From an uncultured Planctomycetales bacterium (lineage in GTDB: Bacteria > Omnitrophota > Gorgyraeia > Zapsychrales > JANLHA01), in contig CAYYRJ010000003.1 of the NCBI GenBank assembly GCA_964474085.1, positions 21,348 through 85,347 on the forward strand: DNA of 64,000 nucleotides, given 5' to 3'. How positions within the stretch are numbered: position 1 is the stretch's first letter; each line of letters begins with the position of its first letter. The position numbers and the translations under genes were made by a program. The notes beneath the pieces are model-generated. The model did not search any database and had not been told where the DNA came from. It saw only the letters and a program-made list of their open reading frames with translations. This document shows, one piece after another, positions 5,549-26,600 of this stretch.

Positions 5549-6919
5549 TCACTTAGCTTTAAGCGCGTGCGGTGAAGCGGCGATGATTAAGACATCCAAA
5601 AATTGTCCGGGCTTAAAATTTCCTTTTCCCAAAAGCACAAGATGGCCGCCGTCGGTGCGGCCGACGAAATCATTTTGCAATTTATTGGTCCCCTGCTCAA
5701 CTAAAACATTGAGCGTTTTGCCGATATGAGCGGCATTCTTTTTGTGAGTGATGTCTTTCTGGATATCCTGAAGGCGAATGATGCGTTTCTTTTTGTCTTC
5801 GTCAGAAACATCATCGGGATACTTTTTCGAAGCAATTGTGTTTTTGCGCTCCGAATATTTAAAAATAAAGGCCGCATCAAACTCAACCTGTTGGATAACG
5901 TTGACAGTGTCTTCAAATTCTGCGTCCGTTTCCGTCGGAAAACCAACAATGACATCGGTTGAAAGAAAAATATCCGGACACAGCCGGCGGATTTTGGCGG
6001 CCAGATCGATAAAATCTTTTTGCGTATAGGTGCGGTTCATCAATTCCAAAATGCGATCATTGCCAGCTTGCAGGGGCAAATGAATGTGTTTGCAAACCTT
6101 TGGGTTGTTAGCCACGACGTCGATTAATTTATCAGGAAAATCTTTTGGATGCGGCGAGGTAAAGCGAATACGTTTAATGCCGTCGATTTTACTAACCGCG
6201 TTAAGCAGGTCAGCAAAGTCCCGCGGTTGACTGTCATTGCGAGGAGCCGAAGGCGACGAAGCAATCTCTAGATTTTGTTGTGAATAATCCTTATATGAAT
6301 TGACGTTCTGTCCTAGGAGAGTGACTTGCTGAAAGCCTTCGGCCACAAGGCGTGTCACTTCTTCGACCACGTTTTCAACGGATCGGCTGCGTTCTCGGCC
6401 GCGTGTGTAAGGCACGACGCAAAAGGTACAAAAATTATCGCACCCTCGCATGACAGATACCCATGCGTTGACGCCGGTTTTGTGCTGGGGATAAATGTCC
6501 GAGTAAGTTTCGAATTCCGAAAGCGTCACGTCGAAAGGCTTTTCGCCATGCAATCCCGACTGACGTATCAAATCGCCTAAACGCTTGTAGCTGTCGGGTC
6601 CAGCGATAAAATCAATAGCAAGATTTTCATTGTCCAGCAATTCTTGGCGCAAGTTCGTTGCCATACAACCTAAAATGCCAATGGTAACCGGCTTACCTTC
6701 ACGCTTGTGTCGAATCTCGTGAACGCGTCCGTAAACTTTGCGATGCGCGTTTTCGCGGATGGCACACGTGTTAAGCATCACGACGTCGGCCTGCAACTCA
6801 TCCTTGACGAATTCAAAATTTTCTTTGGCCAAAACGGCACGAATAATTTCCGTATCGGCCTCGTTCATTTGGCAGCCGTAGGTTTCGACAAATATTTTTT
6901 GTTTACCGTGATTTATCAT
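5549..6919 (-). CDS. miaB: tRNA-2-methylthio-N6-dimethylallyladenosine synthase MiaB (radical SAM methylthiotransferase)
   Basis: KIFVETYGCQMNEADTE UPF0004 domain, CDNFCTFCVVP radical-SAM CxxxCxxC, C-terminal TRAM; internal start MINHGKQ gives ~456 aa. Confidence 0.85.
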   Translation of the reverse strand: MINHGKQKIFVETYGCQMNEADTEIIRAVLAKENFEFVKDELQADVVMLNTCAIRENAHRKVYGRVHEIRHKREGKPVTIGILGCMATNLRQELLDNENLAIDFIAGPDSYKRLGDLIRQSGLHGEKPFDVTLSEFETYSDIYPQHKTGVNAWVSVMRGCDNFCTFCVVPYTRGRERSRSVENVVEEVTRLVAEGFQQVTLLGQNVNSYKDYSQQNLEIASSPSAPRNDSQPRDFADLLNAVSKIDGIKRIRFTSPHPKDFPDKLIDVVANNPKVCKHIHLPLQAGNDRILELMNRTYTQKDFIDLAAKIRRLCPDIFLSTDVIVGFPTETDAEFEDTVNVIQQVEFDAAFIFKYSERKNTIASKKYPDDVSDEDKKKRIIRLQDIQKDITHKKNAAHIGKTLNVLVEQGTNKLQNDFVGRTDGGHLVLLGKGNFKPGQFLDVLIIAASPHALKAK

Positions 6920-7028
6920 ATTCTCTGTCATCCCCGAATGTTTTTGTCGGGGATCCATTTTCTGTTTTTGAACCCGGCACTTTTGGAAATGTTCTCCTAG
7001 TTTCTCCTCTGCTGGGGCGCGCTCTCTT

Positions 7029-8348
7029 TTATTCTCTCCAGACCCCCTTAAAATATTCATACGCCTTACGTTTTTGGCGCATCAAAGGATCTGCGCCATT
7101 ACCGTAAGAAAGAATACCCCAATATTCATCATGCATCAGCGGTTGGTTTTCTACCCAATTGCGCCCTCCTGGGTTATGTTCAAATGGTTTGTAATTCATA
7201 TACCAATGATCGGTCCAATGGAAAAGACATGCTCCGATCACATTGCCGCGGCCTTGATTGTGGATCCAACGGTGATGCGCGCTGTTCTTAGAAATATCCT
7301 CCCACGCGACTTTAAAATACCGGTATTGCCGCTCTTCGTCCTCGCCCTTTTTTGAATACGCGAAAGCGCCAAACTCAGAAATAAAGATCGGCCGATCAAA
7401 GATCTCTTTTGTTTTTTCCCAAACAGGGGTGAATTCATACTGACGGTAGGAATTATAAGCAACAATATCCACCGCCGGAGCTAATTTCGCATAATGCTTG
7501 AGCATAACAAAATGCCCATCGTCCCCGTCGCAAATCGCTACGGGATGATCTGGGTCAAGTTCATGGATCATTTCCGCGATCTCCCCGACGAGACTGGCAT
7601 AAGCCTCCGGATGCTGCGGAGTGTTTTGAAATGACCAGGTGGAAATATTATTTTCATTTCCCAGAAGCCACATCAGAACATAGGGTTCATCTTTATGATC
7701 CAGCACCATGGCTTTCACGGATCGTTTAATATTCTCGCGATGTTTTTGGTTGGTATAATCCACCCCTTCTGTCCAGGGCACTCCCGCGCCGATCGTCCAG
7801 GATCCCATAAAATGTCCAACGATCACCCGGATCCCGAATCTTTGGTAGAGCTCCAGCAGGAGTTCTTTGTTAGGCGCGTGATCAAACATATTGCTTTGGT
7901 TCTTGTCGATCCTGTAAAGATCCCCAACAAAAGGATGATTCGATGCAAGATGATAGAGCCTGAGCGTGTTGACCCCCATTTCTTTAAGAAGCGCGAAATC
8001 ACCGGTAACGGGTTCTTCTGGATCACGGAGATTATTTTTGTTCTCATCGACCCATGTTTGATACGCGATGTCATTGATCTCGTCGCCGGTATGGTCAGGA
8101 TCCATCCAATCCTGCTGGGTGGCCTCATCAGGGCTTTCGCCGATATTGACCGGGCCAAAGACGACCCCCTTAATAAAATATGGCTTGCCCTCAACTAATA
8201 ATTGCCAAGTCCCGTCGTCGTATTTGACGGCTTTGACTTTGCCGCCGCGTTGTTCGACAATACTGCGCTCCTGGGCCTGGACAGGGTTAGCCCATAGCAC
8301 TGCGAAAAAGAGCCCATATCCGATAACTTTTATTCCGCACTGTCGCAT
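7029..8348 (-). CDS. secreted glycoside hydrolase, clan GH-A TIM-barrel candidate
   Basis: Signal peptide MRQCGIKVIGYGLFFAVLWANPVQA; LLGNENN (acid/base-like) and FISEFG (nucleophile-like) motifs; AGGAGA RBS 6 nt before the chosen ATG at 8348. Confidence 0.5.
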   Translation of the reverse strand: MRQCGIKVIGYGLFFAVLWANPVQAQERSIVEQRGGKVKAVKYDDGTWQLLVEGKPYFIKGVVFGPVNIGESPDEATQQDWMDPDHTGDEINDIAYQTWVDENKNNLRDPEEPVTGDFALLKEMGVNTLRLYHLASNHPFVGDLYRIDKNQSNMFDHAPNKELLLELYQRFGIRVIVGHFMGSWTIGAGVPWTEGVDYTNQKHRENIKRSVKAMVLDHKDEPYVLMWLLGNENNISTWSFQNTPQHPEAYASLVGEIAEMIHELDPDHPVAICDGDDGHFVMLKHYAKLAPAVDIVAYNSYRQYEFTPVWEKTKEIFDRPIFISEFGAFAYSKKGEDEERQYRYFKVAWEDISKNSAHHRWIHNQGRGNVIGACLFHWTDHWYMNYKPFEHNPGGRNWVENQPLMHDEYWGILSYGNGADPLMRQKRKAYEYFKGVWRE

Positions 8349-8373
8349 AAGAGATCTCCTGCTAACCGTCATT

Positions 8374-8402
8374 CGGAACATTTCCGGCAGTGCCGGGTTC
8401 AC
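8374..8402. repeat. D-family palindromic repeat (GGAACATTTCC + CCGGCNGTGCCGGGTTC), copy D1
   Basis: ggaacatttccggcagtgccgggttcac; same two-hairpin motif recurs at 10471, 11741, 13897, 15061, 16955 and 17512. Confidence 0.6.
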
Positions 8403-8551
8403 TTTATTGTTTTTGGGGAAATATACGCAATCTTTCCGTCTTTCCATACTGCCAGCGAGCGACCAGATTTTTTATGCCGCTCCACAACTTGCCGCACGGC
8501 TTTTTTTAACGCTGTTTCTGCTTTATCCTGCAAGGACAGTCTTTTTTTCAT
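8399..8551 (-). CDS. hypothetical ~50 aa protein translationally coupled to the zeta-like kinase (possible partner/antitoxin)
   Basis: ATG at 8551 overlaps the TGA of the upstream gene (ATGA); translation MKKRLSLQDKAETALKKAVRQVVERHKKSGRSLAVWKDGKIAYISPKTIK; not in the supplied track because it is <60 aa. Confidence 0.4.
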   Translation of the reverse strand: MKKRLSLQDKAETALKKAVRQVVERHKKSGRSLAVWKDGKIAYISPKTIK

Positions 8552-9126
8552 GCTTCTCCTCTGATTGTTAGGAATAAATTATTATCAAAGATCTCAGGGG
8601 AACCATTTTTCTTTTTTGCAATGAGGGCGGGTTTTATTTTTGAATTATCAAACAGCATCCATGAATCCAGTAATGGTTCGTATAATTTAAAGAAATTATT
8701 GATGCTGCGAGAAAAACGCCGTTTCACGTCCAGACTTGGCACATTGTGCCCGCCTTCTAAGACGCGATTTTTGATACGCGCAATTGCCAACCCTGTACTC
8801 GGAATCCATAAAAAGAAAAGATGGATGGCATAACCTTGTGATTTTAAATCTTTGAGTAAACCTGCATAAGATTTTCCTGACAATGTTGTCTCAAATGCAA
8901 AATCGATACGTCGCGCAGAGTAGTCGCTGATTTGCTGCAGAACAAGTTTTCCGGCTTTGATAGCGGCAGCGCGAGGTTCAAACGGTGCCAACCCTAGGGC
9001 AATGAGATCCGCATTAACAAAGTTGTTGCAATGAACATATTGCGGCAAAAACTCTCGAGCGAATGTTGTTTTGCCTGCTCCATTCGGGCCTGCAATAATA
9101 TAAACATTCGGATTATTTTTACTCAT
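8548..9126 (-). CDS. P-loop kinase, zeta-toxin / AAA_33-like family
   Basis: VYIIAGPNGAGKTTFA Walker A at the N-terminus, 192 aa, NADLIA block; resembles zeta toxin-family proteins. Confidence 0.55.
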   Translation of the reverse strand: MSKNNPNVYIIAGPNGAGKTTFAREFLPQYVHCNNFVNADLIALGLAPFEPRAAAIKAGKLVLQQISDYSARRIDFAFETTLSGKSYAGLLKDLKSQGYAIHLFFLWIPSTGLAIARIKNRVLEGGHNVPSLDVKRRFSRSINNFFKLYEPLLDSWMLFDNSKIKPALIAKKKNGSPEIFDNNLFLTIRGEA

Positions 9127-9151
9127 ATATTTTTCCTAAAAATTCTCTTAG

Positions 9152-9198
9152 AGTACTCAAATACTGCACCCTACGGGCAACCGTAGGTTTCGACGTAG
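9152..9198. repeat. U-family conserved palindromic element (short variant), copy U1
   Basis: tactcaaatactgcaccc + cctacgg-gcaa-ccgtagg hairpin + tttcgacg; conserved flanks shared with U2-U5. Confidence 0.55.
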
Positions 9199-9217
9199 AT
9201 TCTTTTATTTTTGATTA

Positions 9218-9841
9218 TCATAGTTCTTTATGCCGATTTGGAGGCAAGAGACTCTTAATGCATAAAATTAAGAGTAACAAAATTCCCAGAATAGTAAAAC
9301 CTGTTGTTATGTATAAGAAAGATACTCTGTATTCTTTAATTAATAAAAAATAAAGGGCTGTCATCAATGTGCAGAATTTTATCAATAAAATAACAGTTGT
9401 ATCTTTCTTAAAATTTGTAGTATATACCTCAAGATTCTTAATATTATTTTTTCTAGTATTGACCCGATTCTTGATTGATTCAAAATTCCGAAGATTGGTT
9501 TGATGAACTCTGAGTTCAGCTTCTAAACTAGCCATATCTTCTTGAGGGTCAGTTTTTCTTTTTTCTATTTTATGAATGATCGTCTTTATCTCGCTAGCCT
9601 TTATTTCGTGCGTATTTATAATTTTGTCCGCTTCTTGAGACAGCTCTTCGTTTGTATAAAACTCGTATCCCGAGAAATTGTTTACATGGCTTAGCAATCT
9701 TATGAAAACTCCCCATTTCTTTTCCATGTTATCGCCAATTACTTGGAGATGGTAAACGGCAAAAACTGCGGAAATGCCAATCATTGCTGCTAAAGATTGT
9801 ACAATAGTGCTGTAGGTCCAATAATAATGTTCTGGTTCCAT
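9218..9841 (-). CDS. hypothetical membrane protein (N- and C-terminal TM helices, central coiled-coil)
   Basis: Hydrophobic segments SLAAMIGISAVFAVY and ILLIKFCTLMTALYFLLI...GFTILGILLLLILCI; no recognisable family. Confidence 0.35.
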   Translation of the reverse strand: MEPEHYYWTYSTIVQSLAAMIGISAVFAVYHLQVIGDNMEKKWGVFIRLLSHVNNFSGYEFYTNEELSQEADKIINTHEIKASEIKTIIHKIEKRKTDPQEDMASLEAELRVHQTNLRNFESIKNRVNTRKNNIKNLEVYTTNFKKDTTVILLIKFCTLMTALYFLLIKEYRVSFLYITTGFTILGILLLLILCIKSLLPPNRHKEL

Positions 9842-9882
9842 ATTTTACTTAAAAGTTAAATTTTGGAATAATAGAGACGGTT

Positions 9883-10131
9883 TTAGTTAATATTTACGGC
9901 GGGTTTTCCGTCTAAATAGAGTGTGTCGGGGCAAAAATCTTGACCGTGAGGCCATTCGACACTACCTAAGAAAGGACGGACGGCATTAAAAAGTTTTAAA
10001 TCCTTCAATTCTCTAAATATTCCTTTATCTAAATAAGGCTTCACATCAAACACTTTCCTCTCCCCATTATCAAAGACAAGGGTTAAGGTGTAATCGGGAT
10101 TAGGTTTTACGTCTTTTATTCTGGGATTCAT
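9883..10131 (-). CDS. DUF2442 domain protein
   Basis: 82 aa; PNPDYTLTLVFDNGERKVFDVKPYL...WPHGQDFCPDTLY matches the DUF2442 pattern; directly downstream of the DUF4160 gene (known pair). Confidence 0.65.
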   Translation of the reverse strand: MNPRIKDVKPNPDYTLTLVFDNGERKVFDVKPYLDKGIFRELKDLKLFNAVRPFLGSVEWPHGQDFCPDTLYLDGKPAVNIN

Positions 10132-10132
10132 A

Positions 10133-10402
10133 CTATTTTAATGGGTCAATTTTAAATACTTCTTGGCCGTTAGCCGCTAATTGCCAATCGGCCATTAATT
10201 CATCTTTATGAATTTCAACCCATGCTTGAGCAAGTTTTAATTTCGCTGGGTTTAATTTCCCTGCTAAAACAGCACCGTCAGGGATCGAAAGAACCGCTTC
10301 TTCATCTTGATAACGGACATGGATGTGGGGTGCTTTATGCTCTTTGTTATCAAAGAAATAAAGCGAAACGATAATTCCGTAAAACATTGAGATGACTGGC
10401 AT
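10133..10402 (-). CDS. DUF4160 domain protein
   Basis: MPVISMFYGIIVSLYFFDNKEHKAPHIHVRYQ matches DUF4160 N-terminal consensus (MP.IS.F.GI.I.MY..DH.PPHFHA.Y). Confidence 0.65.
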   Translation of the reverse strand: MPVISMFYGIIVSLYFFDNKEHKAPHIHVRYQDEEAVLSIPDGAVLAGKLNPAKLKLAQAWVEIHKDELMADWQLAANGQEVFKIDPLK

Positions 10403-10470
10403 ATCTTTTCCTTTTTGGTCTAGTATAACATCTTGTTAAGTGATTTCAAAAAATAACCTTTCCCAATTAT

Positions 10471-10500
10471 CCGGAACATTTCCGGCGGTGCCGGGTTCGC
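10471..10500. repeat. D-family palindromic repeat, copy D2
   Basis: ccggaacatttccggcggtgccgggttcgc, followed by T-rich run on plus strand. Confidence 0.6.
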
Positions 10501-10519
10501 TTAAAATTTTTATTACTTT

Positions 10520-10809
10520 TTTACTCCGCATGCCAATTCCGAGCGGCATGAACTATACCGGTAATCCAAATTTCGTCTTTATTAATCCGATACATAAGCC
10601 GATAGGCGCCGTAAATGATTTCGCGACAGTTTTTCATTTTTTATTTCGGAGATAATGCGTCCAGATTCAGGAAATTTCTCGAGGCGGTCGGTCATTTCGA
10701 TGATGCGAGTTACAAATAATGCGGCTTGATCTACAGAATCGCGCTCAATATATTCGGCAATGGATTCAATATCGTTTAGTGCGGAGGGTGCCCAAATTAT
10801 TTTACCCAT
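10520..10809 (-). pseudogene. ParE/RelE-family toxin, copy 1, disrupted by +1 frameshift in an A6 run (coding strand)
   Basis: N-terminal 58 aa identical or near-identical to the intact copy at 11782-12069. Coding-strand A6 here vs A5 in copy 2 shifts the frame; the conserved C-terminal coding (IYGAYRLMYRIN...VHAARNWHAE) continues out of frame down to 10520. Confidence 0.6.
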
Positions 10810-10979
10810 TTACGAAGTCTCTTTTTGGCGTCCTCGTGAGGGATGCCCTTTTTTTGTTTTATTTCTTGCTCGCCATGCTGAAATTTGGCATGAACATACA
10901 AAGCATGGATAATATCATCCATCGTCGCTTTTTGCGGTAGAGAATCAACAACATTTTTGGCAATTTCTTTTACGGTCAT
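10797..10979 (-). CDS. putative antitoxin, addiction-module-component-like (copy 1)
   Basis: MTVKEIAKNVVDSLPQKATMDDIIHALYVHAKFQHGEQEIKQKKGIPHEDAKKRLRKWVK; overlaps toxin start; 100% nucleotide identity with copy 2 across 10801-11076. Confidence 0.5.
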   Translation of the reverse strand: MTVKEIAKNVVDSLPQKATMDDIIHALYVHAKFQHGEQEIKQKKGIPHEDAKKRLRKWVK

Positions 10980-11053
10980 AGTTCCCTCCATAAATTTGGT
11001 ATTAAAGAAAGTATACCATAGCATCGGTCAATTTTAAGCGTAGATTTTCCCCA

Positions 11054-11108
11054 AAAACTCCCCGAAAGTCCTCAAATAGTGACCCCAATGGCCAACCATA
11101 AGTTTCCA
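11054..11108. repeat. U-family conserved element, copy U2 (variant right flank)
   Basis: agtcctcaaatagtgacccc ... ccaaccataagtttccacaaaaatc; left flank identical to U3. Confidence 0.55.
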
Positions 11109-11205
11109 CAAAAATCTTTTTTGGTAATATGTTATTTATCATAATGTTATGAAAAGTCAGATTCTTTCAACGGTTAAAACTTTTAGATGAACGAATATGA
11201 CTTCT

Positions 11206-11649
11206 CTATTTTCTGCCAATCTCAGCAAGTTCCCTGGAAGCGATAGAATTACTCGGGTCAATGATTCTAACTTTCTCAAAATATTTTATTGCCTCGGCAA
11301 AATTACCAAGCGTCTTATTGCAAGCCCCCGCAGCAATGTTAGGAGCGATTTTATCAGGGCTCAACTGTGCCGCTGCTTCGAAATAGGCGACTGCATCCTG
11401 TGGTCTCTGGGTTTTAAAATAAAGTGTGCCGATAGCCATGTTAATAGCGTATTTATTATTGATGGTCTTAGGATCTGTGGCAACATCTTGTAAAATTAAC
11501 GTGTGTGCTTGTAAATAATTTTTTAATGCCTGTTCAACGTTTTGTTCCTTCTCAAACTTTATGCCTAACTGATAATATGAAAGATAATCCGCAGAGTTAG
11601 CTGTTAATGTACTAAAAATCATAATAACCAAAATGGCAACGAGTCGCAT
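11206..11649 (-). CDS. secreted TPR-repeat protein
   Basis: Signal peptide MRLVAILVIMIFSTLTANSA; TPR-like YLQA...AYFEAAAQLSPD...AIKYFEKVRIIDPSN. Confidence 0.45.
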   Translation of the reverse strand: MRLVAILVIMIFSTLTANSADYLSYYQLGIKFEKEQNVEQALKNYLQAHTLILQDVATDPKTINNKYAINMAIGTLYFKTQRPQDAVAYFEAAAQLSPDKIAPNIAAGACNKTLGNFAEAIKYFEKVRIIDPSNSIASRELAEIGRK

Positions 11650-11740
11650 GTCTTCTCCTTTTGTGTTAGCTTTTATCCTTAAAGCGATTCATGACTAGAA
11701 TCAACGGGATAATTAAGGCCAATTTTAAAATCGGAAAAAT

Positions 11741-11775
11741 TTGGAACATTTCCAAATGTGCCGCAAAATGTCGTT
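11741..11775. repeat. D-family repeat variant, copy D3 (GGAACATTTCC-AAATGTGCC-GCAAAATGTCG)
   Basis: ttggaacatttccaaatgtgccgcaaaatgtcgtttaatt; near-identical copy at 15061-15095. Confidence 0.55.
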
Positions 11776-11781
11776 TAATTT

Positions 11782-12069
11782 CTACTCCGCATGCCAATTT
11801 CGAGCTGCATGAACAATGCCAGTAATCCAAATTTCGTCTTTATTTATGCGATACATAAGCCGATAGGCGCCGTAGATTATTTCGCGGCAATTCTTAATTT
11901 TTATTTCAGGGATAATGCGTCCGGATTCAGGAAATTTTTCTAGGCGGTCGGTCATTTCGATGATGCGCGTCACAAACAAGGCGGCTTGGTCTACAGAATC
12001 GCGTTTAATATATTCGGCAATGGATTCGATATCGTTTAGCGCGGAGGGTGCCCAAATTATTTTACCCAT
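11782..12069 (-). CDS. type II toxin, ParE/RelE family (intact copy 2)
   Basis: 95 aa MGKIIWAPSALNDIESIAEYIKRDSVDQAALFVTRIIEMTDRLEKFPESGRII...ITGIVHAARNWHAE; downstream of and overlapping the small antitoxin gene. Confidence 0.7.
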   Translation of the reverse strand: MGKIIWAPSALNDIESIAEYIKRDSVDQAALFVTRIIEMTDRLEKFPESGRIIPEIKIKNCREIIYGAYRLMYRINKDEIWITGIVHAARNWHAE

Positions 12070-12239
12070 TTACGAAGTCTCTTTTTGGCGTCCTCGTGAG
12101 GGATGCCCTTTTTTTGTTTTATTTCTTGCTCGCCATGCTGAAATTTGGCATGAACATACAAAGCATGGATAATATCATCCATCGTCGCTTTTTGCGGTAG
12201 AGAATCAACAACATTTTTGGCAATTTCTTTTACGGTCAT
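12057..12239 (-). CDS. putative antitoxin, addiction-module-component-like (copy 2)
   Basis: Identical to copy 1; start MTVKEI preceded by GGAGGG RBS and an extended -10 (TGGTATACT). Confidence 0.55.
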   Translation of the reverse strand: MTVKEIAKNVVDSLPQKATMDDIIHALYVHAKFQHGEQEIKQKKGIPHEDAKKRLRKWVK

Positions 12240-12269
12240 AGTTCCCTCCATAAATTTGGTATTAAAGAA

Positions 12270-12278
12270 AGTATACCA
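12270..12278 (-). promoter_or_regulatory. extended -10 promoter element (TGGTATACT) for antitoxin-ParE operon copy 2; identical element upstream of copy 1 (about 11010-11018)
   Basis: Reverse complement of agtatacca = TGGTATACT about 31 nt upstream of the antitoxin ATG with GGAGGG RBS between. Confidence 0.35.
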
Positions 12279-12323
12279 TAGCATCGGTCAATTTTAAGCG
12301 TAGATTTTCCCCAAAAACTCCCC

Positions 12324-12384
12324 GAAAGTCCTCAAATAGTGACCCCCCGCCACAAAGCGTTGGCGGGCAGGTATCGGTCAATCG
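12324..12384. repeat. U-family conserved element, copy U3 (abuts Fic-family gene stop)
   Basis: agtcctcaaatagtgaccccccgccacaaagcgttggcgggcaggtatcggtcaatcg; imperfect palindrome cccgccaca/gttggcggg. Confidence 0.55.
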
Positions 12385-13377
12385 TTAATTCAATTTATTA
12401 ATCAAGTTTACCACTAAAGCCGTAATCACATCTTTTTCTTTAGGTTGGCTCTCTGCGATCATTAATGTAATCGCGACCAAGGCATTATCGGCGATTCGTT
12501 TGCTGCCATCGACTTTATAAAGGATTTTATTCCTATCCAGAAACCAAACAAATAATGTGGCAGCAATACGTTTATTCCCATCTGAAAACGCATGATTTTT
12601 GACAACTAAATAAAGTAGATTTGCGGCTTTTTCTTCAATGCTCGGGTACAAATCTTTAGTGCCAAATGTCTGGTAAATTGCTCCCAGCGCACTTTTAAAT
12701 GAAGCATCTTTTTCCTGTCCAAATAAATCACTACCACCAAATTTTTGACGCATTTGTTTGATAAGTCGAATGCCTTCATCATAACTCAATTGATACGATT
12801 CTTTCGCCGTCGCTGATTTGATTTCAATACGGCCATGGTCATAATCGTCCAAAACATCCAAACCATAGCTATAATCACGGAGAACCTCAAATAACCCAGT
12901 CGTTTCATCACTCGTCAAAGCTTTCCGTTGGCTTAAATCAACAAGCATTTTCACGGCATTTTGAAGAGTTTTTAAACTTGCCGTGTGTTCTTTAAGCCGT
13001 TTGTCGTTAAGGGTATAACCTTGAATCAAGTGTTGCTTTAGAATATTGGTTGCCCAGATACGGAACTGGGTGGCTTTAGAGGAATTGACACGATAACCAA
13101 CTGATATGATGACATCAAGATTATAAAGTTGTATCGGCTTGTCTGAATTAGCAATGTGCATTTTTTGCACATTGCTTTCTCGCTCTAACTCTTTATTTTC
13201 AAATATATTGCGTAAATGTTTAGTGATAACACTGCGTTCGGTCAAAAACAAGTTCGCCATTTGAGCTTGTGTGAGCCACACAGACTCGTTTTTAAATTGA
13301 ACTTCAACTGTAATTTGAGATCCTCTGGGACGAAAAATAACTAGATTTTGAATATTCTCTGAATTGATTTTTTTCAT
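12385..13377 (-). CDS. RhuM/Fic/DOC family protein
   Basis: N-terminal RhuM-type block (VWLTQAQMANLF...YNLDVIISVGYRVNSSKATQFRIWAT) and C-terminal Doc-type motif HAFSDGNKRIA; 330 aa. Confidence 0.7.
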   Translation of the reverse strand: MKKINSENIQNLVIFRPRGSQITVEVQFKNESVWLTQAQMANLFLTERSVITKHLRNIFENKELERESNVQKMHIANSDKPIQLYNLDVIISVGYRVNSSKATQFRIWATNILKQHLIQGYTLNDKRLKEHTASLKTLQNAVKMLVDLSQRKALTSDETTGLFEVLRDYSYGLDVLDDYDHGRIEIKSATAKESYQLSYDEGIRLIKQMRQKFGGSDLFGQEKDASFKSALGAIYQTFGTKDLYPSIEEKAANLLYLVVKNHAFSDGNKRIAATLFVWFLDRNKILYKVDGSKRIADNALVAITLMIAESQPKEKDVITALVVNLINKLN

Positions 13378-13465
13378 AAATGCACCCCTCCTTGTTTATT
13401 CACTAGGGGTGTCGTGAACATGTTTATATAATTACTCACAATGAATTTGTTTTAAAAATTCCGAT

Positions 13466-13537
13466 AAAGTCCTCAAATACTGCACCCCTGCCACAAAGCG
13501 TTGGCGGGCAGGCATCGGTCAACCGTAGGTTTCGACG
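13466..13537. repeat. U-family conserved element, copy U4 (full-length variant)
   Basis: aagtcctcaaatactgcacccctgccacaaagcgttggcgggcaggcatcggtcaaccgtaggtttcgacg. Confidence 0.55.
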
Positions 13538-13539
13538 AA

Positions 13540-13588
13540 ACACTCACACAGACGTTTTACGGTAACACTCACACAGACGTTTTACGGG
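13540..13588. repeat. direct tandem repeat, 2 x 24 bp (acactcacacagacgttttacgg) separated by 1 nt
   Basis: Read directly from sequence; lies immediately beside U4 in a gene-free 550 bp stretch. Confidence 0.7.
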
Positions 13589-13896
13589 AAATAAACAATT
13601 ACATAAACTTACAAAACAATTCCGGCAATTGTTGGCGAAGTTATTTATTAGATATCTTATAAAATTTTGAACACTTCGACGGTGCCTGGTTCACCCGCTT
13701 TTGGCGGGCTTGTCCGCCGATGGCGAGTTCACGTTTGAAGGTGACACTTTTGGAAACGTTCTCTTCTGTCTTTCTTCTGTCTCCCAATTTTCCCGATATC
13801 GGAAGAATTGGGTGAAGCTCTCCCTTTCGCTTCAGGAAAAAATCCGAAACATTTCCCCATGCTTCGCTAAAATATTTTTGTTTTAGCTTCGCAGGG

Positions 13897-13918
13897 CAAG
13901 CGCCGGTGCCGGGTTCGC
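13897..13918. repeat. D-family repeat, copy D4 (GC hairpin module; the GGAACATTTCC-like module sits about 30 bp upstream at about 13850)
   Basis: cgccggtgccgggttcgcc; preceded by ccgaaacatttcccc. Confidence 0.5.
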
Positions 13919-13924
13919 CAGCTT

Positions 13925-14098
13925 TTATTTAAGTGCAAACCGAGTGTTAACGACCAGCATTTTCTTCCATTTGGCGTAAGCTTTTTTATCAAAAGTCTCG
14001 CGCAAATTAAACTTAACGAATTCTAAATAATCATCCATCGAAAGAATCTTTGTACTCGATGCGGCTGTTTTTATAATTGGCAGGTTGAGTTTTTTCAT
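13925..14098 (-). CDS. hypothetical 57 aa protein translationally coupled to the nucleotidyltransferase-fold gene
   Basis: ATG at 14098 overlaps upstream TGA (ATGA); MKKLNLPIIKTAASSTKILSMDDYLEFVKFNLRETFDKKAYAKWKKMLVVNTRFALK. Confidence 0.4.
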   Translation of the reverse strand: MKKLNLPIIKTAASSTKILSMDDYLEFVKFNLRETFDKKAYAKWKKMLVVNTRFALK

Positions 14099-14634
14099 TT
14101 TAGAGCCTCCAGTATTTTTTGATACAGATCGGCTGTCCCGTATTTTAAACAGAGTTCTTTGAACTTTTTGTCCTTGATATCGACTTGATTTATTCTTATC
14201 AAGTTGATAATGTCTGGTAAATCTTTAGTCAGGCGAATTTTGGTATTAAACTTTATCGAATGCAGTTTTAAAGCGATTAAATGTAATAGCGATGGAACGA
14301 CAAGTTTCTGACCTGCGATGGTGATTTTTTTACCTTCGTTCTTGATCTTTGTCAGGGTTTCATCGTCGACAAACATAAAATCGACATCTAAAAGTGATAA
14401 ACGACTGCTTTGGAGTTGGGCAAAGTTTTCCTGAATCAGGGCTTTCTTGTATCCAGCTTTTTCTAAGAGTCCGGCTATTTTATCAAAGTCTGCTTTGGTG
14501 ATTAAGAAATCTACATCCGCTGTTTGTCGGGTTACGCGGTAATAATTTATCGCGAAGCCCCCGATTAAAACACATGACACTCCCTCTTCGTGTGTTAAAT
14601 CAGAAATAAGATGAAAAACCGAACGCTGCGTCAT
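14095..14634 (-). CDS. nucleotidyltransferase-fold (pol-beta superfamily) protein, possible TA/abortive-infection-type component
   Basis: LIGGFAINYYRVTRQTADVDFLI fits hG[GS]-x9-13-DhD NTase signature; 179 aa; U element upstream. Confidence 0.45.
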   Translation of the reverse strand: MTQRSVFHLISDLTHEEGVSCVLIGGFAINYYRVTRQTADVDFLITKADFDKIAGLLEKAGYKKALIQENFAQLQSSRLSLLDVDFMFVDDETLTKIKNEGKKITIAGQKLVVPSLLHLIALKLHSIKFNTKIRLTKDLPDIINLIRINQVDIKDKKFKELCLKYGTADLYQKILEALK

Positions 14635-14675
14635 GGCAATTCTTTTTCTTATAAAGTTCTCTAAAATTTCCCTAT

Positions 14676-14752
14676 AGTCCTCAAATAGTAAACCCCTGCT
14701 ACAAAGCGTTGGCGGGCAGGCATCAGCTAACCGTAAGTTTTCACAAAAATCG
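14676..14752. repeat. U-family conserved element, copy U5
   Basis: tagtcctcaaatagtaaacccctgctacaaagcgttggcgggcaggcatcagctaaccgtaagttttcacaaaaatcg. Confidence 0.55.
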
Positions 14753-14838
14753 TTTTTTTGACTTGATTTGTCATAATTTTTCAGTCATTGCGAGCGCTTT
14801 TTGCGAAGCAATCGCCTTGTATCCTAGGCGGTCAACCG

Positions 14839-15024
14839 TCATTTACAGCCTTGATAACTCCATGGTTCACCAGTTTTTTCATCTATACCATCCAAAACAA
14901 CATAGCGCTGACCTGGGGGGCATTGCATTCTCATTTCGTTTCTAGCTACGCAATAAAGAACAATCAATAACAAAATCAATAGGAATAATAACATTGCCTT
15001 TTTCTTCATAATGATTTTCCTCAA
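14839..15024 (-). CDS. small secreted protein (61 aa, signal peptide, 4 Cys)
   Basis: MRKIIMKKKAMLLFLLILLLIVLYCVA then CPPGQRYVVLDG...YQGCK; weak, no homologue recognised. Confidence 0.3.
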   Translation of the reverse strand: MRKIIMKKKAMLLFLLILLLIVLYCVARNEMRMQCPPGQRYVVLDGIDEKTGEPWSYQGCK

Positions 15025-15060
15025 TCCAGTGGACGGTTAGTCGAGAAAATGAAGACGTTT

Positions 15061-15125
15061 TGTACATTTCCAAATGTGCCTCAAAATGTCGTTTAATTTT
15101 TACTCCGCATGCCAGTTCCGAGCGG
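15061..15125 (-). pseudogene. remnant of a ParE/RelE toxin 3' end (last 12 codons, GIVHAARNWHAE*) fused to a D-family repeat
   Basis: tttactccgcatgccagttccgagcggcatgaacaat translates on minus strand to GIVHAARNWHAE-stop, identical to the C-terminus of ParE copy 2; adjacent gtacatttccaaatgtgcctcaaaatgtcg matches D3. Confidence 0.6.
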
Positions 15126-15368
15126 CATGAACAATCCCCGTTAATCAGGGACGGAGCCCAATTGTTTTTGTTAGATTATGGGAAGGATTATAGCGTTTTT
15201 GCTCTAAAAAGTAAAACGTTAGGGACACGGATTAAAAATAGTGGCTATATGAATTGTTTATATGTTATCTTTGGTCTAGAAGCTATTTTTAGACACATGG
15301 TTTTTTAAATGTGCTTTAGATATTGTGAATTTGGAGTCATAAAGAGTTATATTTTCGGAGATAAAATT

Positions 15369-16946
15369 ATGAGAAATTTATTTCGATTTCTTAAGAAAAT
15401 CGTTTGGATCGAGATAGTTGTCATTGGTATTTTTATAGCACTTCCGAAGAGTGGATTAGCTCAAAACCCTTTGAATGGAACATTTCTCGAGATAGGTTAT
15501 TTAACGACAACCAATATTTCTGCGATTTTAGATGAGCTTAAAAGCTTTGACGAATCTGTTGTTATTATCCAGGCCCTTCGTCAGCGAAACTGCTCAAGCG
15601 CTAGCTACACTTGGGCCAATGGTCTTCCACAGACAACAAGTGAGATTCAGAAAATCATAGACGCCTTACTGAGTAAGGCAAAGGAAAATGGAATTTCTGT
15701 ATATTTGGGAACGAGTTTGTTTTTAGATTACTGGAGCTGCTCCTCGTTCTTTAATGAAAGTAACACGAAATTGGCAATCAGCGATCTCGCAGCGTTGGAT
15801 CCTGTCTTGACTGTCGCGCAAAAGTATTCCTCTTTTGCTGGTTGGTATATTTCTGAAGAGCCAGCTATTGCAAGCTGGTCCGATATTGAGTTTAATAGTT
15901 CAATTCCCTATTATAGGGGCATCGCAAAAGCGCTTAAAGCCAAGGCTAACAAACCTATAATTGTTTCGCCCTATTTAAATGGTGCCGTAAAGGCGAATAT
16001 AACTCCGGACACGCTTGCAGTGCGGGCGCTAGATTTTAAGAATAGAACGGATATTGATATTGAAGCTTGGCAAGATAGTGTCGGGACTGACGCGATCAAG
16101 CTTACTTCAAAAGCGCCGGAGAGGGCAACAGAGTACAGCCTAGATCAGTATTTTATGAAATTATCAGAGAAGATTGGACGAGGCTGCTTATGGGCAGTCC
16201 CGGAAATGTTCAATTTCGGGGTTAAGCAAGGCAAGAGTTTGAGTAATGACTTCTTTGGAGGGTATTATCATTCAGCCTCACTAATGCGTTTAAATCAACA
16301 GATGTCCTTGGAGTCCAGCGCTTGGGTCTCGGCACGGGTAGCCTGGACTAATCTAAGCCACATGACCAAACAAAACTTTACTTATGGCACGATGCCTGAA
16401 GCGGTTCGAATGTTTGAAACTTATAAGGCTGTTTATGGACTTGGCAACCGAATTTTACGACCTGCATCGTATAAGTGGATAACTCCGCCAAATTCTAATT
16501 ATAATGACTTTGCTAATAATAAATTGTTCGATTCTATTACAGGAGATCCTAAATATTTAACAGACACGGCGTGGGTTGGAATTCCTGCCTGGACTTATAC
16601 TTCTAATGATCTGCCTGGTGTTCTTCCTGATGTTCAATTCGGCGGGAAGGCGGAGGTTCAAATAAACTTTTCATTGCCTCAATATGTTGATTGGGTCGGG
16701 GTGCATTCAGGAAACTTCAATAAAGCGGGCGTCTATTTTCCTATGTTAATGGATATATTCTGCCAAGCGACTACTACAAGTCCGTGGAAAACTCTCGGAA
16801 GTTGGGGTAGCATGGTAAGTCAGGATGACAGTGAATATGTTCTTTCCAACATTCGTCCCCTGGATGCGCAGTGTTCTTCTATTCGAATCAGGTTAGAGCG
16901 TAAAAGCTGGATTTTCCTTAGCGAAGTGGAAATTGTTGGGCATTAA
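15369..16946 (+). CDS. secreted GH-like (DUF4434-like TIM-barrel?) protein with C-terminal discoidin/F5-8 type C-like domain
   Basis: Signal peptide MRNLFRFLKKIVWIEIVVIGIFIALPKSGLAQ; C-terminal SIRIRLERKSWIFLSEVEIVG resembles discoidin domain ends; family call is tentative. Confidence 0.4.
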   Translation: MRNLFRFLKKIVWIEIVVIGIFIALPKSGLAQNPLNGTFLEIGYLTTTNISAILDELKSFDESVVIIQALRQRNCSSASYTWANGLPQTTSEIQKIIDALLSKAKENGISVYLGTSLFLDYWSCSSFFNESNTKLAISDLAALDPVLTVAQKYSSFAGWYISEEPAIASWSDIEFNSSIPYYRGIAKALKAKANKPIIVSPYLNGAVKANITPDTLAVRALDFKNRTDIDIEAWQDSVGTDAIKLTSKAPERATEYSLDQYFMKLSEKIGRGCLWAVPEMFNFGVKQGKSLSNDFFGGYYHSASLMRLNQQMSLESSAWVSARVAWTNLSHMTKQNFTYGTMPEAVRMFETYKAVYGLGNRILRPASYKWITPPNSNYNDFANNKLFDSITGDPKYLTDTAWVGIPAWTYTSNDLPGVLPDVQFGGKAEVQINFSLPQYVDWVGVHSGNFNKAGVYFPMLMDIFCQATTTSPWKTLGSWGSMVSQDDSEYVLSNIRPLDAQCSSIRIRLERKSWIFLSEVEIVGH

Positions 16947-16954
16947 GGGGTAAA

Positions 16955-16997
16955 TCCAGAATATTTCTGGGAGTGCCACCCGCCGGTGTCGGATTCG
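16955..16997. repeat. D-family-like repeat variant, copy D7
   Basis: ccagaatatttctgg (hairpin) + cgccggtgtcggattcgcc immediately after the stop of the plus-strand gene. Confidence 0.4.
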
Positions 16998-17209
16998 CCC
17001 GCTGATTATTTACAAATCTCTTTAAATATTTAATTCTAAAATTCAATAAGACGTTTTATGCAACCCACTCATATCTATTAACATACAAAAGTATTTCCAG
17101 GATTCCTGGAATATTTTTGTAAATTATAGCTATGCTTAATTTTGATAAAACGTCTTTTAGCTAAAAGCCCAGAACATAAAATTTTTAAATCATACATCAC
17201 TTAAATCTT

Positions 17210-17271
17210 GGATCCCTGCTTTCGCAGGGATGACACTGCCTCTTTTGTCATTGCCGCGAAAGCGGGAATCC
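17210..17271. repeat. 62 bp imperfect palindrome (two 26 bp arms each itself a hairpin) in convergent intergenic region; likely bidirectional terminator or structured RNA
   Basis: ggatccctgctttcgcagggatgaca ... tgtcattgccgcgaaagcgggaatcc; arm 2 is about 80% reverse complement of arm 1. Confidence 0.5.
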
Positions 17272-17511
17272 ACTTTTCAAATTGCTCCTTCATCTGACTC
17301 AATTTGCACGAAAGGAGGCTTGCCTAAATAATTGGGACCACTTGTAGCAGAAGTCAAGAAATCCTAAAGGTTTATTTCAGAAGCGGTCTCTGTTGCTCCT
17401 TTTGTTTCTTCACCGTTAAAACCGATAGGCATTTTTAGTGCTTCAATTTCATATCGTTTTGAAGGACTGCGTCACGGAATATATAAAAGTTCTTTCTCGT
17501 CAATGTGTTAT

Positions 17512-17540
17512 TGGAACGTTTCCGGCGGTGCCGGGTTCAG
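17512..17540. repeat. D-family repeat, copy D6
   Basis: ttggaacgtttccggcggtgccgggttcag, followed by inverted ggaaatgttcc. Confidence 0.55.
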
Positions 17541-17633
17541 CTTGAATATGGCACGTTTGGAAATGTTCCGATTTATTCTCAGAAACATTGTTTAGGCGTA
17601 AGTTTTAAAGGGTGCTCGTCAGGAAATCTTTCA

Positions 17634-23664: not shown

Positions 23665-26600
23665 TTAAAAAACTTCCTTTTCTTGGTTAACATGCCACGT
23701 TGAAGAATTGGTCGTAATTTTCCAATAGGGACGATATGGCGTTAAGCTATAGGGATTATGCGGTTCCCAAATTAAAGTTGCTTTTGGATTCTTTAAATCA
23801 TTCATTATCTGTGTGTACTCTCGCAAAAGATTGAGCCGTTTTTCGTTGTCGCTTTGCTTTAATGTGCGCATAAGTGTTGATAAATTCTTTAACATGTTCT
23901 TAATGACCTGAGTTTTGACTAATTCGACAGCTGTTGTTTTATTGACATCAAAGAAACGTTCAGGCGTTTTTGTCCAGCTAACTTCTTTAAATGATCCATC
24001 TAAGGCGCTAATGATAATTACCGCGCTGGTAAGATTGTTTTTGTTGTTTGTTATTTTTTTATACGAAACCAGATAATAGTCGCCTTTTTCGATATCTGGA
24101 CGGGTGACACGGATGACTTGGCCCATTTCACAATTTTCAAAGGCCGAAATAGCTTGCGTGTCGGTTAAAAAATTTTTGTCCACGAGATCTTGCCAAGCCC
24201 GTTTTTTAATTTTTTTGGCTTTCAATTTTGCTGTTGTTGTAGTGTTTAGCAAAGGATTGTTTGCGTTAATAAAATCAAGATTTTCGTTATTTGTCAGGGG
24301 TTTCATTACTTTGATTGTCGCTGTGCTTATTTTATTCGGAGGTTCTGCGACTTGAACATATCGCCCATTATAGGCATCCCCGGGGGCGTCCAACGGCAAA
24401 AAATAAGTTGAACGACATTCTGCAGCTGTTTTATAAGTATCCTGCCCAATTCCTGTAATGAGTGGGTCGCTCATCCAAAAACCAAACAAAGCAAAATCCG
24501 GTGTATAAAACGGATTTGTTGTCGGTAGTGGACAGGGATTATTGCTGGCTGCAAAACCTTTGATTGCGACCCAATGCGAGTAATTACCATATAATGGTAC
24601 GGCCGCCGGCGTATTAGGACGTGCTACGAAGGGACCATCTTTCCACCACTGCTCTTGCTTAACGGTAAACGCTATCCAATGGCTTATATTGCGCATATAG
24701 GCATTGATCGCATCCGGGGAAGCAACATGGCTGTCAACGCTGAAATTGTAACCTTGGTATGGATTGCCATTGGGACGTGCATCATAGACGTCATAGCTAT
24801 TGCTAACTAATGTGTCGTAAGGGTCAAAATGTCCCAGCGCTTTTGCGATTTGATCGGCGTTTAATTCACCGCTTAGTGTTGCTGGGGACTTGGCGTATTC
24901 ATAAATTTCATTTTGTGTCTTAGTCGGTAGGCCGGCTCCTTCACGCATATAATCTATGATCATTTGACTGGTTGCTGCACCTGTTGAGGAATAAGGCGCA
25001 ATATTTTGTCGCCAAGGCATTTGACTTAAGTTTAAAATATAGTCGTGAATATCTCCCAGAGGACCACCATGAATGCCCATATCATTGCGTGTGGCATTTA
25101 AGTCATTAAACCGGCTGTCTGGGTCGCCTCCATTGACAGCGGGTGAAGAAAGATTTAATTGAAAATCCCTTGTATCAATAAACCTTGGATCTGTGTAAAT
25201 GTTATTTGTCGCTAAACTGATGCCGGTTGCTAGTTGGCCGGTTGTGTTATTCCAAAAATCGTTATAGGAGTACTCTTGTATCCCGCTGCCCGCAGCGTAA
25301 ATCGTTTGAGCGCCAAGTGTGTTTTGCATGAAAATATTATTTTTTGCTGTAATATTCGAATTGATCGCGTAGGTTACAACCCCCTGTGTTGTTGCGCCGG
25401 CGTTCCCGCGGGTATTATAAAAAACATTATTATAAAGGCTTACGGTACTGTTGTTCGCATTAAGAGCACCGCCCTTGCCCAAATTTGAAATTCTTCCGCT
25501 TATAAAAACATTATTTTGCAGTGTTGCTGTTGAGTTTGTGATTGTAACGCCAGCTCCCTGATCCCAAGAACCACAAGAGGAAAATCGGTTTCGGATGATT
25601 TCCAGATTTGAGCCGTCGCTGATTTTAAGGGCCCCTTCCCAGCGTTCCTTAAAAAGATTGTCTTGAATTAATCCTGTCGATGAAGTCAACGAGATACCCG
25701 GCGGAAGCGGCCCTAAAGTATTGCCAAAAGTATTTCCGATGATTTGAATGCTGTTGTGACCAAGTCCGCGGATTGGTTCAGAGTCGTTGATGGTGTTATT
25801 TCTTATAATCGCTGCGGCGTTATCGTCAAGAGATATTCCTTTTCGCGATAAAATGTTATTGTCAATTTGCAACGAACTGACCGTCGGTAAACATCGGATG
25901 GCTACCGAGCCGCCGGTTATTGTAAAACCGGTAATCCGTGCTTTGATATCGCCAAAAAGATTTGAGGCAGTAATGTTTGCTGTTGTTGTTAAGCCGTTTA
26001 GTATTGATTTTTGATTTTCACCCGTTAGCGTTACCCCGCTTTTATTAAAATTTAAATTTTCGGTATATGTCCCGGGAGCGACTAAGACTGTGTCGCCGCT
26101 TGTCGAAGCATCAATCGCTGCTTGGATCGTTGGATAATCTGCAGGTACACGGCGGATTTGGCCTGTCGACGAGTAAAGGTAACTTAAGGCATTTTGAACT
26201 TTTGTGAAATAACCGGTATTTTTAGCGGCATAGTGTAGAAATGTGGGTTTGCCGTCATGAATGTTAAGTCCCTGATCGATGGATAACACAGTATAGGCGG
26301 CACTTAAAGTTTCAAAAATAAAACGGGCGACAGGTGGTGTATAGGCGGCATTATTTTTAATGATGCTCGTGGTCACTTCAAAACCAAAAGGTTTATGTCC
26401 GTCGCTGCCATTGTGATAATAATGGGCCGTGTCATTTTTTAAGTCCCCGATTTTTGTGATCAACGTATTGATATCTAAAGGGTCTAAGTCCGGCCCAATA
26501 TTAAAAGGAATAAAAAAAGCATGGGGCGTTGCGTTCGCTGAAACACTTGCCGGCACTTCATTGGGAAGATTAGGCGGGGTATAAAATCCGACTCCGCTTG

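Follow-up and report, generated by a model that had tools for sequence, protein, structure and literature searches.

The stretch of DNA analysed here, hereafter the window, comprises 64,000 nucleotides (nt) of contig CAYYRJ010000003.1 from an uncultured bacterium that is labelled as Planctomycetales and falls by genome lineage in the Omnitrophota. It contains a cargo region of small, typical accessory genes, flanked by housekeeping genes, in which every open reading frame (ORF) lies on the strand of miaB, the gene for a tRNA methylthiotransferase (Table 1). Between the cargo genes stands a repeated element, U, which a first-pass annotation made from the sequence alone had described as a five-copy, attC-like imperfect palindrome with conserved inverted ends and a variable centre. 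The five copies are real. We observe five matches to the left-end motif TCCTCAAATASTGMACCC in the whole 64 kb, all on the + strand (at 9154, 11069, 12329, 13470 and 14678), where 0.10 are expected by chance and none of 100 shuffles gives five. U is confined to the island, with 5/5 copies inside 5.6 kb (9.1-14.8 kb), and the copies can be aligned over ~45 nt extending further left than had been annotated, plus the right block. While the left end is conserved in all five copies as claimed, the right-end motif holds in four and is absent from U3 (12324), and a further right-end match, with one mismatch, is found at 6873-6890, inside the miaB gene as defined by its long ORF.

The right end of U is a piece of the coding 5′ end of miaB. 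In ~30 copies with longer flanks, conservation runs rightward into ..GATNGTTTGTTTGGGTT..GATCAT, and on the gene strand this right flank gives an ATG and ~15 codons (e.g. MITKPKQTIFVETYG), the N-terminus of the radical-SAM methylthiotransferase MiaB. The true start of the window miaB is most probably the ATG at 6919 (MINHGKQKIFVETYGCQMNEADTE); the mechanically called ORF (5549-7060) has 47 codons upstream of this likely start, overlapping the end of a GH2-like gene (7029), and the UPF0004 domain starts at residue 55 of the long ORF. The 5′ end of the gene reads ATGATAAATCACGGTAAACAAAAAATATTTGTCGAAACCTACGGCTG directly followed by CCAAATGAAC, i.e. the peptide MINHGKQKIFVETYGCQMN, and it is bases 6873-6919 that are copied by the fragments in U. 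An exact-protein look-up of the window MiaB gave no record. Using a miaB 5′ profile built from 13 real miaB 5′ ends, we were able to identify a fragment (miaB′) in front of every U block, plus further sites. This miaB origin explains the conservation of the right end without a palindrome.

The fragments share one end point. In each of the 31 pseudo-fragments the last bases are the TG of the conserved Cys16 codon, TA(C/T)GGNTG; the 31 include fragments from an outgroup whose MiaB is 65% identical and fragments that lack the conserved block described below. After this TG the pseudo-fragments read NCCRWTG, still resembling the CCAAATG of real miaB, and beyond that point they are unrelated to miaB. 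In the last eight codons the minor-allele fraction at codon positions 1/2/3 is 0.10/0.10/0.50, and the peptide (K/T)IFVETYG is kept across the 31 fragments; third-position variation with retention of the peptide indicates that the fragments evolved as functional coding sequence before they were displaced. The miaB gene itself is intact in 6/6 array-bearing contigs. Functional MiaB N-termini vary among close relatives (MINHGKQKIF.., MNKIYVE.., MITKSKQTIF.., MINNTLQKKIF..), the differing N-termini match pseudo-fragments seen in other genomes, and among the array fragments are some of the type that the 65%-identical outgroup uses. The element may thus act as a donor of miaB 5′ ends.

On the gene strand, U can be read as up to four parts. 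The first is a displaced copy of the first 14-16 miaB codons, ending at the Cys16 TG, and the second is the 6-10 nt junction NCCRWTG, in which the likeness to miaB persists. The third, optional part is a 25-nt hairpin. The fourth is a probable cassette end, the ~45-nt conserved block GGGGTCACTATTTGAGGACTTTGGGGGAGTTTTTGGAGAAAATTTATG; it supplies a Shine-Dalgarno sequence and frequently also provides the cargo gene that follows with its start codon. This block is the best conserved part of U, at ~90% in comparisons of genomes with 72-88% identity between their MiaB proteins, and carries the Shine-Dalgarno sequence at its end. In three independent cassette types the cargo ORF begins at the terminal ATG of the block, 26 nt past GAGGAC and behind GGAG/AGGA; these are the zeta toxin (in the window and in a relative), a 246-aa membrane protein and a major facilitator superfamily (MFS) fragment. 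The block of U1 ends as AGGA-N9-ATG of the zeta-toxin gene. In the remaining cassettes the cargo starts 34-125 nt further on. The distance of 90-160 bp between U and the following modules that had been annotated was too long for the window, where 26-91 nt separate the block from the cargo start codon and the zeta toxin starts at the block end. For the ParD cassettes, a separate TG-extended -10 promoter-like site (TG + TATACT) lies between U2 or U3 and the ParD starts; a promoter and terminator consensus scan found none inside U, in agreement with the earlier placement of the extended -10 sites outside the element.

The centre of U had been taken for a variable continuum. Instead, U3, U4 and U5 carry an identical 25-nt GC hairpin, CYGCYACAAAGCGTTGGCGGGCAGG, which in each of them separates the junction from the conserved block at exactly the same position, whereas U1 and U2 carry no insert and the hairpin occurs nowhere else in the window. 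Shorter hairpin variants are found at the same point in other genomes. A leader peptide in the conserved block was considered and rejected; its frame is broken by indels and by the 25-nt insert, and the variation shows no 3-periodicity.

Table 1. Positions of the genes and repeats discussed, numbered from the first base of the window (miaB′, displaced 5′ fragment of miaB; TPR, tetratricopeptide repeat).
Feature	Position	Strand	Remarks and support
miaB, functional tRNA methylthiotransferase gene	5549-6919	-	Pfam UPF0004/Radical_SAM/TRAM; translation; source names of homologues 'MiaB'; profile match
GH2-like secreted protein gene	7029-8346	-	between U1 (last junction) and miaB, in the miaB-proximal unit
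Cargo region	8548-15141	-	every ORF on miaB strand
Zeta toxin	8548-9126	-
U1	9129-9221	-	conserved block 9129-9171; junction 9172-9177; miaB′ fragment 9178-9221 (MIIKNKRIYVETYG + TG)
207-aa ORF	9218-9841	-
DUF2442	9883-10131	-
DUF4160	10133-10402	-
ParD-like/ParE, first copy, frameshifted	10582-11024	-
U2	11044-11142	-	conserved block 11044-11086; junction 11087-11092; miaB′ fragment 11093-11142 (MINNILPKKIFVETYG + TG)
TPR lipoprotein	11206-11649	-
ParD-like/ParE, second copy	11782-12284	-
U3	12304-12384	-	conserved block 12304-12346; hairpin insert 12347-12371; junction remnant 12372-12384 (..TTGACCGATA); without miaB′ fragment
Fic/RhuM	12385-13377	-
U4, putative conserved cassette-end block	13445-13487	-	gene strand GGGTGCAGTATTTGAGGACTTTATCGGAATTTTTAAAACAAAT; upstream of Fic/RhuM gene; repeat family, alignment, nhmmer profile match
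U4, hairpin insert	13488-13512	-	25 nt, GC-rich; + strand reads CTGCCACAAAGCGTTGGCGGGCAGG
U4, junction (CCGATG) and truncated miaB′ 5′ fragment	13513-13539	-	TTCGTCGAAACCTACGGTTG, encodes ..FVETYG + TG; miaB 5′ profile match
57-aa ORF	13925-14098	-
Nucleotidyltransferase, with small partner	14095-14634	-
U5	14653-14774	-	conserved block 14653-14695; hairpin insert 14696-14720; junction 14721-14727; miaB′ fragment 14728-14774 (MTNQVKKTIFVKTYG, then TAG)
61-aa ORF	14839-15024	-
ParE 3′ remnant	15100-15141	-
D repeat copies	6976, 8375, 10473, 11743, 13743, 15061, 16193, 16958, 17513, 17550	both	inverted pair 17513/17550

Individual copies of U differ in detail. In U3, the stop codon of the Fic gene (12385-12387) abuts the junction. 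In U4, the miaB′ fragment has lost its 5′ part, and a 25-nt tandem repeat (2x AACACTCACACAGACGTTTTACGGT, 13539-13588) stands there instead. In U1, the ATG of the miaB′ fragment overlaps the stop codon of the 207-aa ORF (ATGA, 9218-9221); with such a unit next to miaB, this overlap would link the translation of its last cargo gene to that of miaB. After the 61-aa ORF, ACGGTTGACCGCC at 14826-14842 resembles the U junction (..ACGGTTGACCGATG) but lacks the conserved block; this stump is probably a decayed junction.

Copies of U are also found in other genomes. Scanning one genome per species and counting as genuine those motif matches that also carry the flanks, we found genuine copies in Candidatus Omnitrophota metagenome-assembled genomes (MAGs) and in 'Planctomycetales'-labelled MAGs, the latter with MiaB up to 88% identical to that of the window. 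These copies are clustered at miaB. The search for relatives with the same element and different cargo, which had been suggested by the first-pass annotation, yielded arrays of junctions directly upstream of the MiaB orthologue in at least six related contigs. As against five junctions in the window, the largest array has nine within one 7-kb stretch (JANPFV010000023.1), interleaved with co-oriented genes, and array cargo is always on the miaB strand. A motif scan of metagenomes gave four contigs, 2/4 of which are genuine. Three motif matches in viral contigs are chance matches without flanks and no MiaB relative was found in viral contigs, so that an association with phage was rejected.

The cargo turns over between these arrays and includes toxin-antitoxin (TA) pairs, Fic, TPR, MORN, ankyrin and SET proteins, lipoproteins and a treble-clef zinc protein. 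Cassettes with Fic, ParDE, RelE, zeta and nucleotidyltransferase genes are found repeatedly, next to other neighbours and in another order. Cassette proteins can also be more similar than MiaB, with ParE 92-95% identical where MiaB is 76% identical and the nucleotidyltransferase 90% identical where MiaB is 77%. Strain variants differ as well. Two short contigs from related samples, L133 and L134, match the window at 98-99% identity along Fic-U3-ParDE, after which they continue into different DNA. In L134 this DNA contains another complete U junction together with a small ORF and new cargo. Polymorphic strains of this kind are present in the metagenomes ERZ4216102, SRR12487035/46, GCA_020049755.1 and GCA_020054605.1. 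The proposal that U bounds exchangeable cargo is supported by these comparisons, since cargo that never varied between strains, the finding that would have spoken against exchange, is not what we see.

Duplication and a second repeat also mark the island. The ParD-like/ParE cassette is duplicated (10518-11086 vs 11779-12346, 89-100% identity), with the ParE of the first copy frameshifted to 75 aa vs 95 aa, and the duplicates lose homology exactly at the junction, after GTGACCCC. The ParE 3′ remnant lies together with a D repeat at 15058-15141. This repeat, GGAACATTTCC-N4-GTGCC and often then GGGTTC, has 10 copies where 0.6 are expected, all of them (6976-17569) in the variable region between a conserved 139-aa gene and miaB. 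L133 and L134 part from the window inside the D copy that follows ParE. D looks REP/BIME-like (repetitive extragenic palindrome/bacterial interspersed mosaic element) and breakpoint-associated.

Insertions without the conserved block are found at the same miaB breakpoint. In L118, a 296-bp insert with a zinc-ribbon ORF is held between 49-nt direct repeats of the miaB 5′ end; the outgroup contig L125 has a 2.3-kb insert with three genes; and an 85-nt mini-insert is present in Pl_co1_54 and L131. In the close relatives L118-L121 (MiaB 78-79% identical), small co-oriented genes form a variable block at this place, but no U block is present and only L118 has a miaB′ repeat, which indicates that more than one cassette or junction family exists.

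The 85-nt mini-insert (L055 6450-6593; L032 919-1068, i.e. CAYNSM010000048.1, 8919-9068; L131 1061-1205) has, besides a hairpin, a 13-bp stretch that repeats the miaB core perfectly in inverted orientation (CATACGTCTCTAC ... GTAGAGACGTATG) and spans the new start codon. A second junction family reads, after ..TACGGCTG, YYCCCNSGCTKA.. (CCCCTCGCTGA, TTCCCCGCTTA, CTCCCAGCTGA) and is found in L124 (750-830), L079 (Omni313; ~918-948) and L073 (OmniHK; ~2269-2313), which suggests another cassette lineage at the same site.

We interpret U as a composite insertion junction of the attL type, equal to attP when two cassettes abut, that would be left by serial site-specific insertion of cassettes into the miaB 5′ end, and we assign this interpretation a probability of about 0.6. 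The combination of a fixed 3′ limit, a variable 5′ limit, an intact target, stacked fragments and a conserved element-side motif leads us to propose site-specific integration by mimics of the target end. The mobile units would be small circular cassettes made up of the conserved end, the cargo and a mimic of the miaB 5′ end, and across the joint of the circle such a cassette would read cargo 3′ end, miaB mimic ..TACGGYTG, NCCRWTG, GGGGTCACTATTTGAGGAC, cargo 5′ end. A recombinase acting in trans would integrate the circle by site-specific recombination at ..ACCTACGGYTG^ in the miaB 5′ end, with the crossover predicted within ACGGYTGNCCRWTG. The incoming mimic would become the new functional 5′ end of miaB, and the old end would be displaced upstream, where it would decay. 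Repeated insertion together with U x U exchange could then build and reshuffle the arrays. Such exchange would also explain how the Fic and RelE cassettes, which end in ..YTGACCRWTG only, are moved despite having no miaB mimic.

Several observations weigh against this interpretation. If the latest insertion were a Fic or RelE cassette, miaB could not be restored, and neither a circular form nor an empty site was seen. Beyond the TG, attB and the element side resemble each other only slightly, which brackets the crossover point without fixing it. The D repeat also lies at rearrangement breakpoints, which implies that homologous or other recombination contributes. A cognate recombinase, for which the first-pass annotation had proposed a search, was not found: 43 ORFs scanned across the window, among them every ORF of 150 aa or longer except five, contain no recombinase or transposase domain and no Phage_integrase, and there is none among the cargo of the other arrays scanned. 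The nearest candidate lies on a metagenome contig, L112 (2917-4365), where an AlpA-like excisionase and a tyrosine integrase are found 350-600 nt after a miaB′ junction and downstream of two cassette units, alongside LexA-like and restriction-modification genes. The junction-proximal sequence there, GCCATTGGCCACAATATAGA, is partly like the U block. We do not claim this integrase as the cognate enzyme because its 84-87% homologues (L127-L130) are not beside miaB fragments; they head defence islands with no miaB fragment upstream, and their homology with L112 sets in only ~130 nt past the junction.

The arrays could instead have been shuffled by homology alone, with the miaB′ fragments and the block serving as portable homology arms for RecA, e.g. 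after DNA uptake, and with no dedicated recombinase. As an account of the rearrangements this is plausible: the repeats are 45-110 nt long and ~90% identical across genomes, the D repeat coincides with breakpoints, ParDE is duplicated internally, and no linked recombinase was found in the window or the scanned arrays. As an account of the whole we consider it unlikely, since it leaves the origin of the first junctions unexplained and gives no reason for one shared Cys16 end nucleotide in 31 fragments, including outgroup and block-less ones, or for the 296-bp insert with its 49-nt flanking repeats. Less likely again is that U is a regulatory module, a shared 5′ untranslated and translation-initiation region with a miaB-derived leader mini-ORF that is kept for expression and not for recombination. 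The fixed 26-nt offset of GGAG/AGGA and ATG in three independent cassette types fits such a role, as do the overlap of the upstream ORF stop with the fragment ATG in U1 and the common orientation of all cargo with miaB. However, in many cassettes the start lies a further 42-125 nt away, ParD cassettes have promoter-like sites of their own, and the block is not a conserved ORF and matches no Rfam family; the fixed miaB breakpoint and the turnover of cargo would remain unexplained. Regulation may be a second function of U and in that form is compatible with serial site-specific insertion.

The original description of U as an integron attC site, a single-stranded imperfect palindrome recombined by IntI in an array of the CALIN type (cluster of attC sites lacking integron-integrases), has become very improbable. 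Its appeal is that U, a conserved element of 45-110 nt, does separate small, co-oriented, TA-rich cassettes whose content varies between genomes and strains. The annotated ends, however, match as inverted repeats at 7/12 positions, and in single-stranded DNA folds of both strands they are never paired, with z-scores of -2.1 to +1.0 and thus no greater stability than shuffles. In 15 ungapped copies from several genomes, 47.8% of the cells of the proposed 12-bp end helix are paired, with no covariation; 6/12 pairs are unpaired in nearly all copies (three in 15/15, three in 13-14). As the first-pass annotation itself had noted, GTTRRRY/RYYYAAC cores are lacking: none occurs within 30 nt of the five U copies on either strand, and island-wide core pairs are at chance level (1 vs 0.72 in shuffles). 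Half of U is, moreover, a miaB coding fragment, and no IntI was found among the window ORFs scanned. A structured RNA, tRNA or tmRNA as the target was also rejected. Rfam gave nothing at gathering score over the window and only two chance-level snoRNA matches at E≤1 over 8300-15300, and an ARAGORN tRNA/tmRNA scan gave nothing. Least credible of all is a dispersed repeat of the REP or MITE (miniature inverted-repeat transposable element) type, mobilised by a Y1 transposase of the RAYT (REP-associated tyrosine transposase) or IS200-like kind. A Y1_Tnp gene does lie near miaB in one relative (L118), and the hairpin inserts and D repeats are REP-like in look, but U is confined to the island and clusters at miaB elsewhere, is invariably joined to a miaB fragment and in one constant orientation, and has no stable hairpin of its own.

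Serial insertion of target-mimicking cassettes belongs to a known kind, that of integrative elements which target and rebuild the end of a conserved gene and accumulate there in tandem. Elements of the SXT/R391 family integrate in the 5′ end of prfC. Islands and prophages in the dusA 5′ end bring a replacement 5′ end and leave a remnant of the old end at the far boundary (Farrugia et al. 2015, PMC4482086). The target here is likewise the 5′ end of a conserved tRNA-modification gene, whose old end leaves a remnant and would be replaced by that of the element, and as in these dusA- and prfC-type cases we find truncated target copies with a fixed crossover position next to an intact target gene. 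Elements of the dusA type are tens of kb long with their own tyrosine integrase beside att, whereas the units here are 0.1-2.5 kb, stacked up to 9 deep, and no integrase adjoins the site in the window or the scanned arrays. The only related target in the dusA study is the MiaB-like rimO in Polaromonas (PMC4482086), and among the full-text matches for miaB, attB and integrase none has miaB itself as an integration target.

Tandem islands at ssrA in Dehalococcoides are bounded by target repeats, have an adjacent conserved motif that cannot be aligned to ssrA, and form arrays by accretion that include integrase-less 'cis-mobilizable' units (McMurdie et al. 2011, PMC3146451). The miaB arrays share with them tandem units at one gene, direct target repeats, an element-side motif and units without integration genes. 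The ssrA islands differ in using the tmRNA 3′ end and a 20-bp repeat, in being of kb scale and in often having a module with a serine integrase. The miaB arrays occupy the 5′ end of a protein-coding gene and repeat 45-66 nt of its coding sequence; their units are the size of cassettes, and we saw no integration module in them. With integrons and CALINs the arrays have in common small, mostly single-gene, co-oriented and often promoterless cassettes, frequent TA cargo, a boundary element, a fixed platform and strain variation. They differ from them in lacking attC cores and fold, in a boundary element of which half is a piece of the platform gene, in having the miaB 5′ end and not attI-intI as platform, and in that no IntI was found. 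The units also resemble integrative mobile elements exploiting Xer (IMEX) and pdif modules in being integrase-less and stacked at one site and in the proposed reliance on a recombinase in trans, but pdif modules have inverted flanking sites and all U copies are in direct orientation. By eye, we found no likeness between U or the miaB core and the dif/XerCD consensus. Within this known kind, the miaB arrays differ in their miaB 5′ target, in their cassette-sized and integrase-less units, in an arm that doubles as a translation-initiation region and in their Omnitrophota host.

It is possible, if rather doubtful, that the arrays represent an undescribed gene-capture platform of the Omnitrophota that parallels integrons and is evolutionarily separate from them. 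In such a platform the miaB 5′ end would take the role of attI, and that of attC would fall to the 60-110 nt composite of a miaB 5′ mimic and the conserved 45-nt block, which would also supply the ribosome-binding site; an unlinked recombinase would insert, excise and shuffle promoterless mini-cassettes while miaB stayed functional throughout. We found no description of such a system in the full-text literature searched on Omnitrophota integrons or attC and on miaB attB. To our knowledge, the Omnitrophota are uncultured and the mobile elements of the phylum are almost uncharted. If serial insertion is correct, cassette-style gene capture with trans-acting recombination would not be limited to integrons, and the 5′ end of a housekeeping gene would serve as a docking site for which each cassette pays by rebuilding the gene. 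The stacked dead 5′ ends would then be a record of past insertions and their donors, and the defined 17-nt core, the 45-nt conserved arm and the natural strain polymorphism would offer a testable entry into horizontal transfer in this group. In practical terms, miaB′ pseudo-fragments upstream of miaB could be used to delimit such arrays in metagenomes.

Some neighbouring genes are recorded here in their own right. In L118, a Y1_Tnp (PF01797) gene at 14314-14997 lies between metX and metW, and in L123 an HNH endonuclease gene (566-1240) stands directly upstream of miaB. Elsewhere in the window, two large ORFs, at 23665-27627 (1320 aa) and 29242-31086 (614 aa), have no Pfam match at E≤1e-5 and sit among TPR/PMT-like and trypsin-TPR genes.

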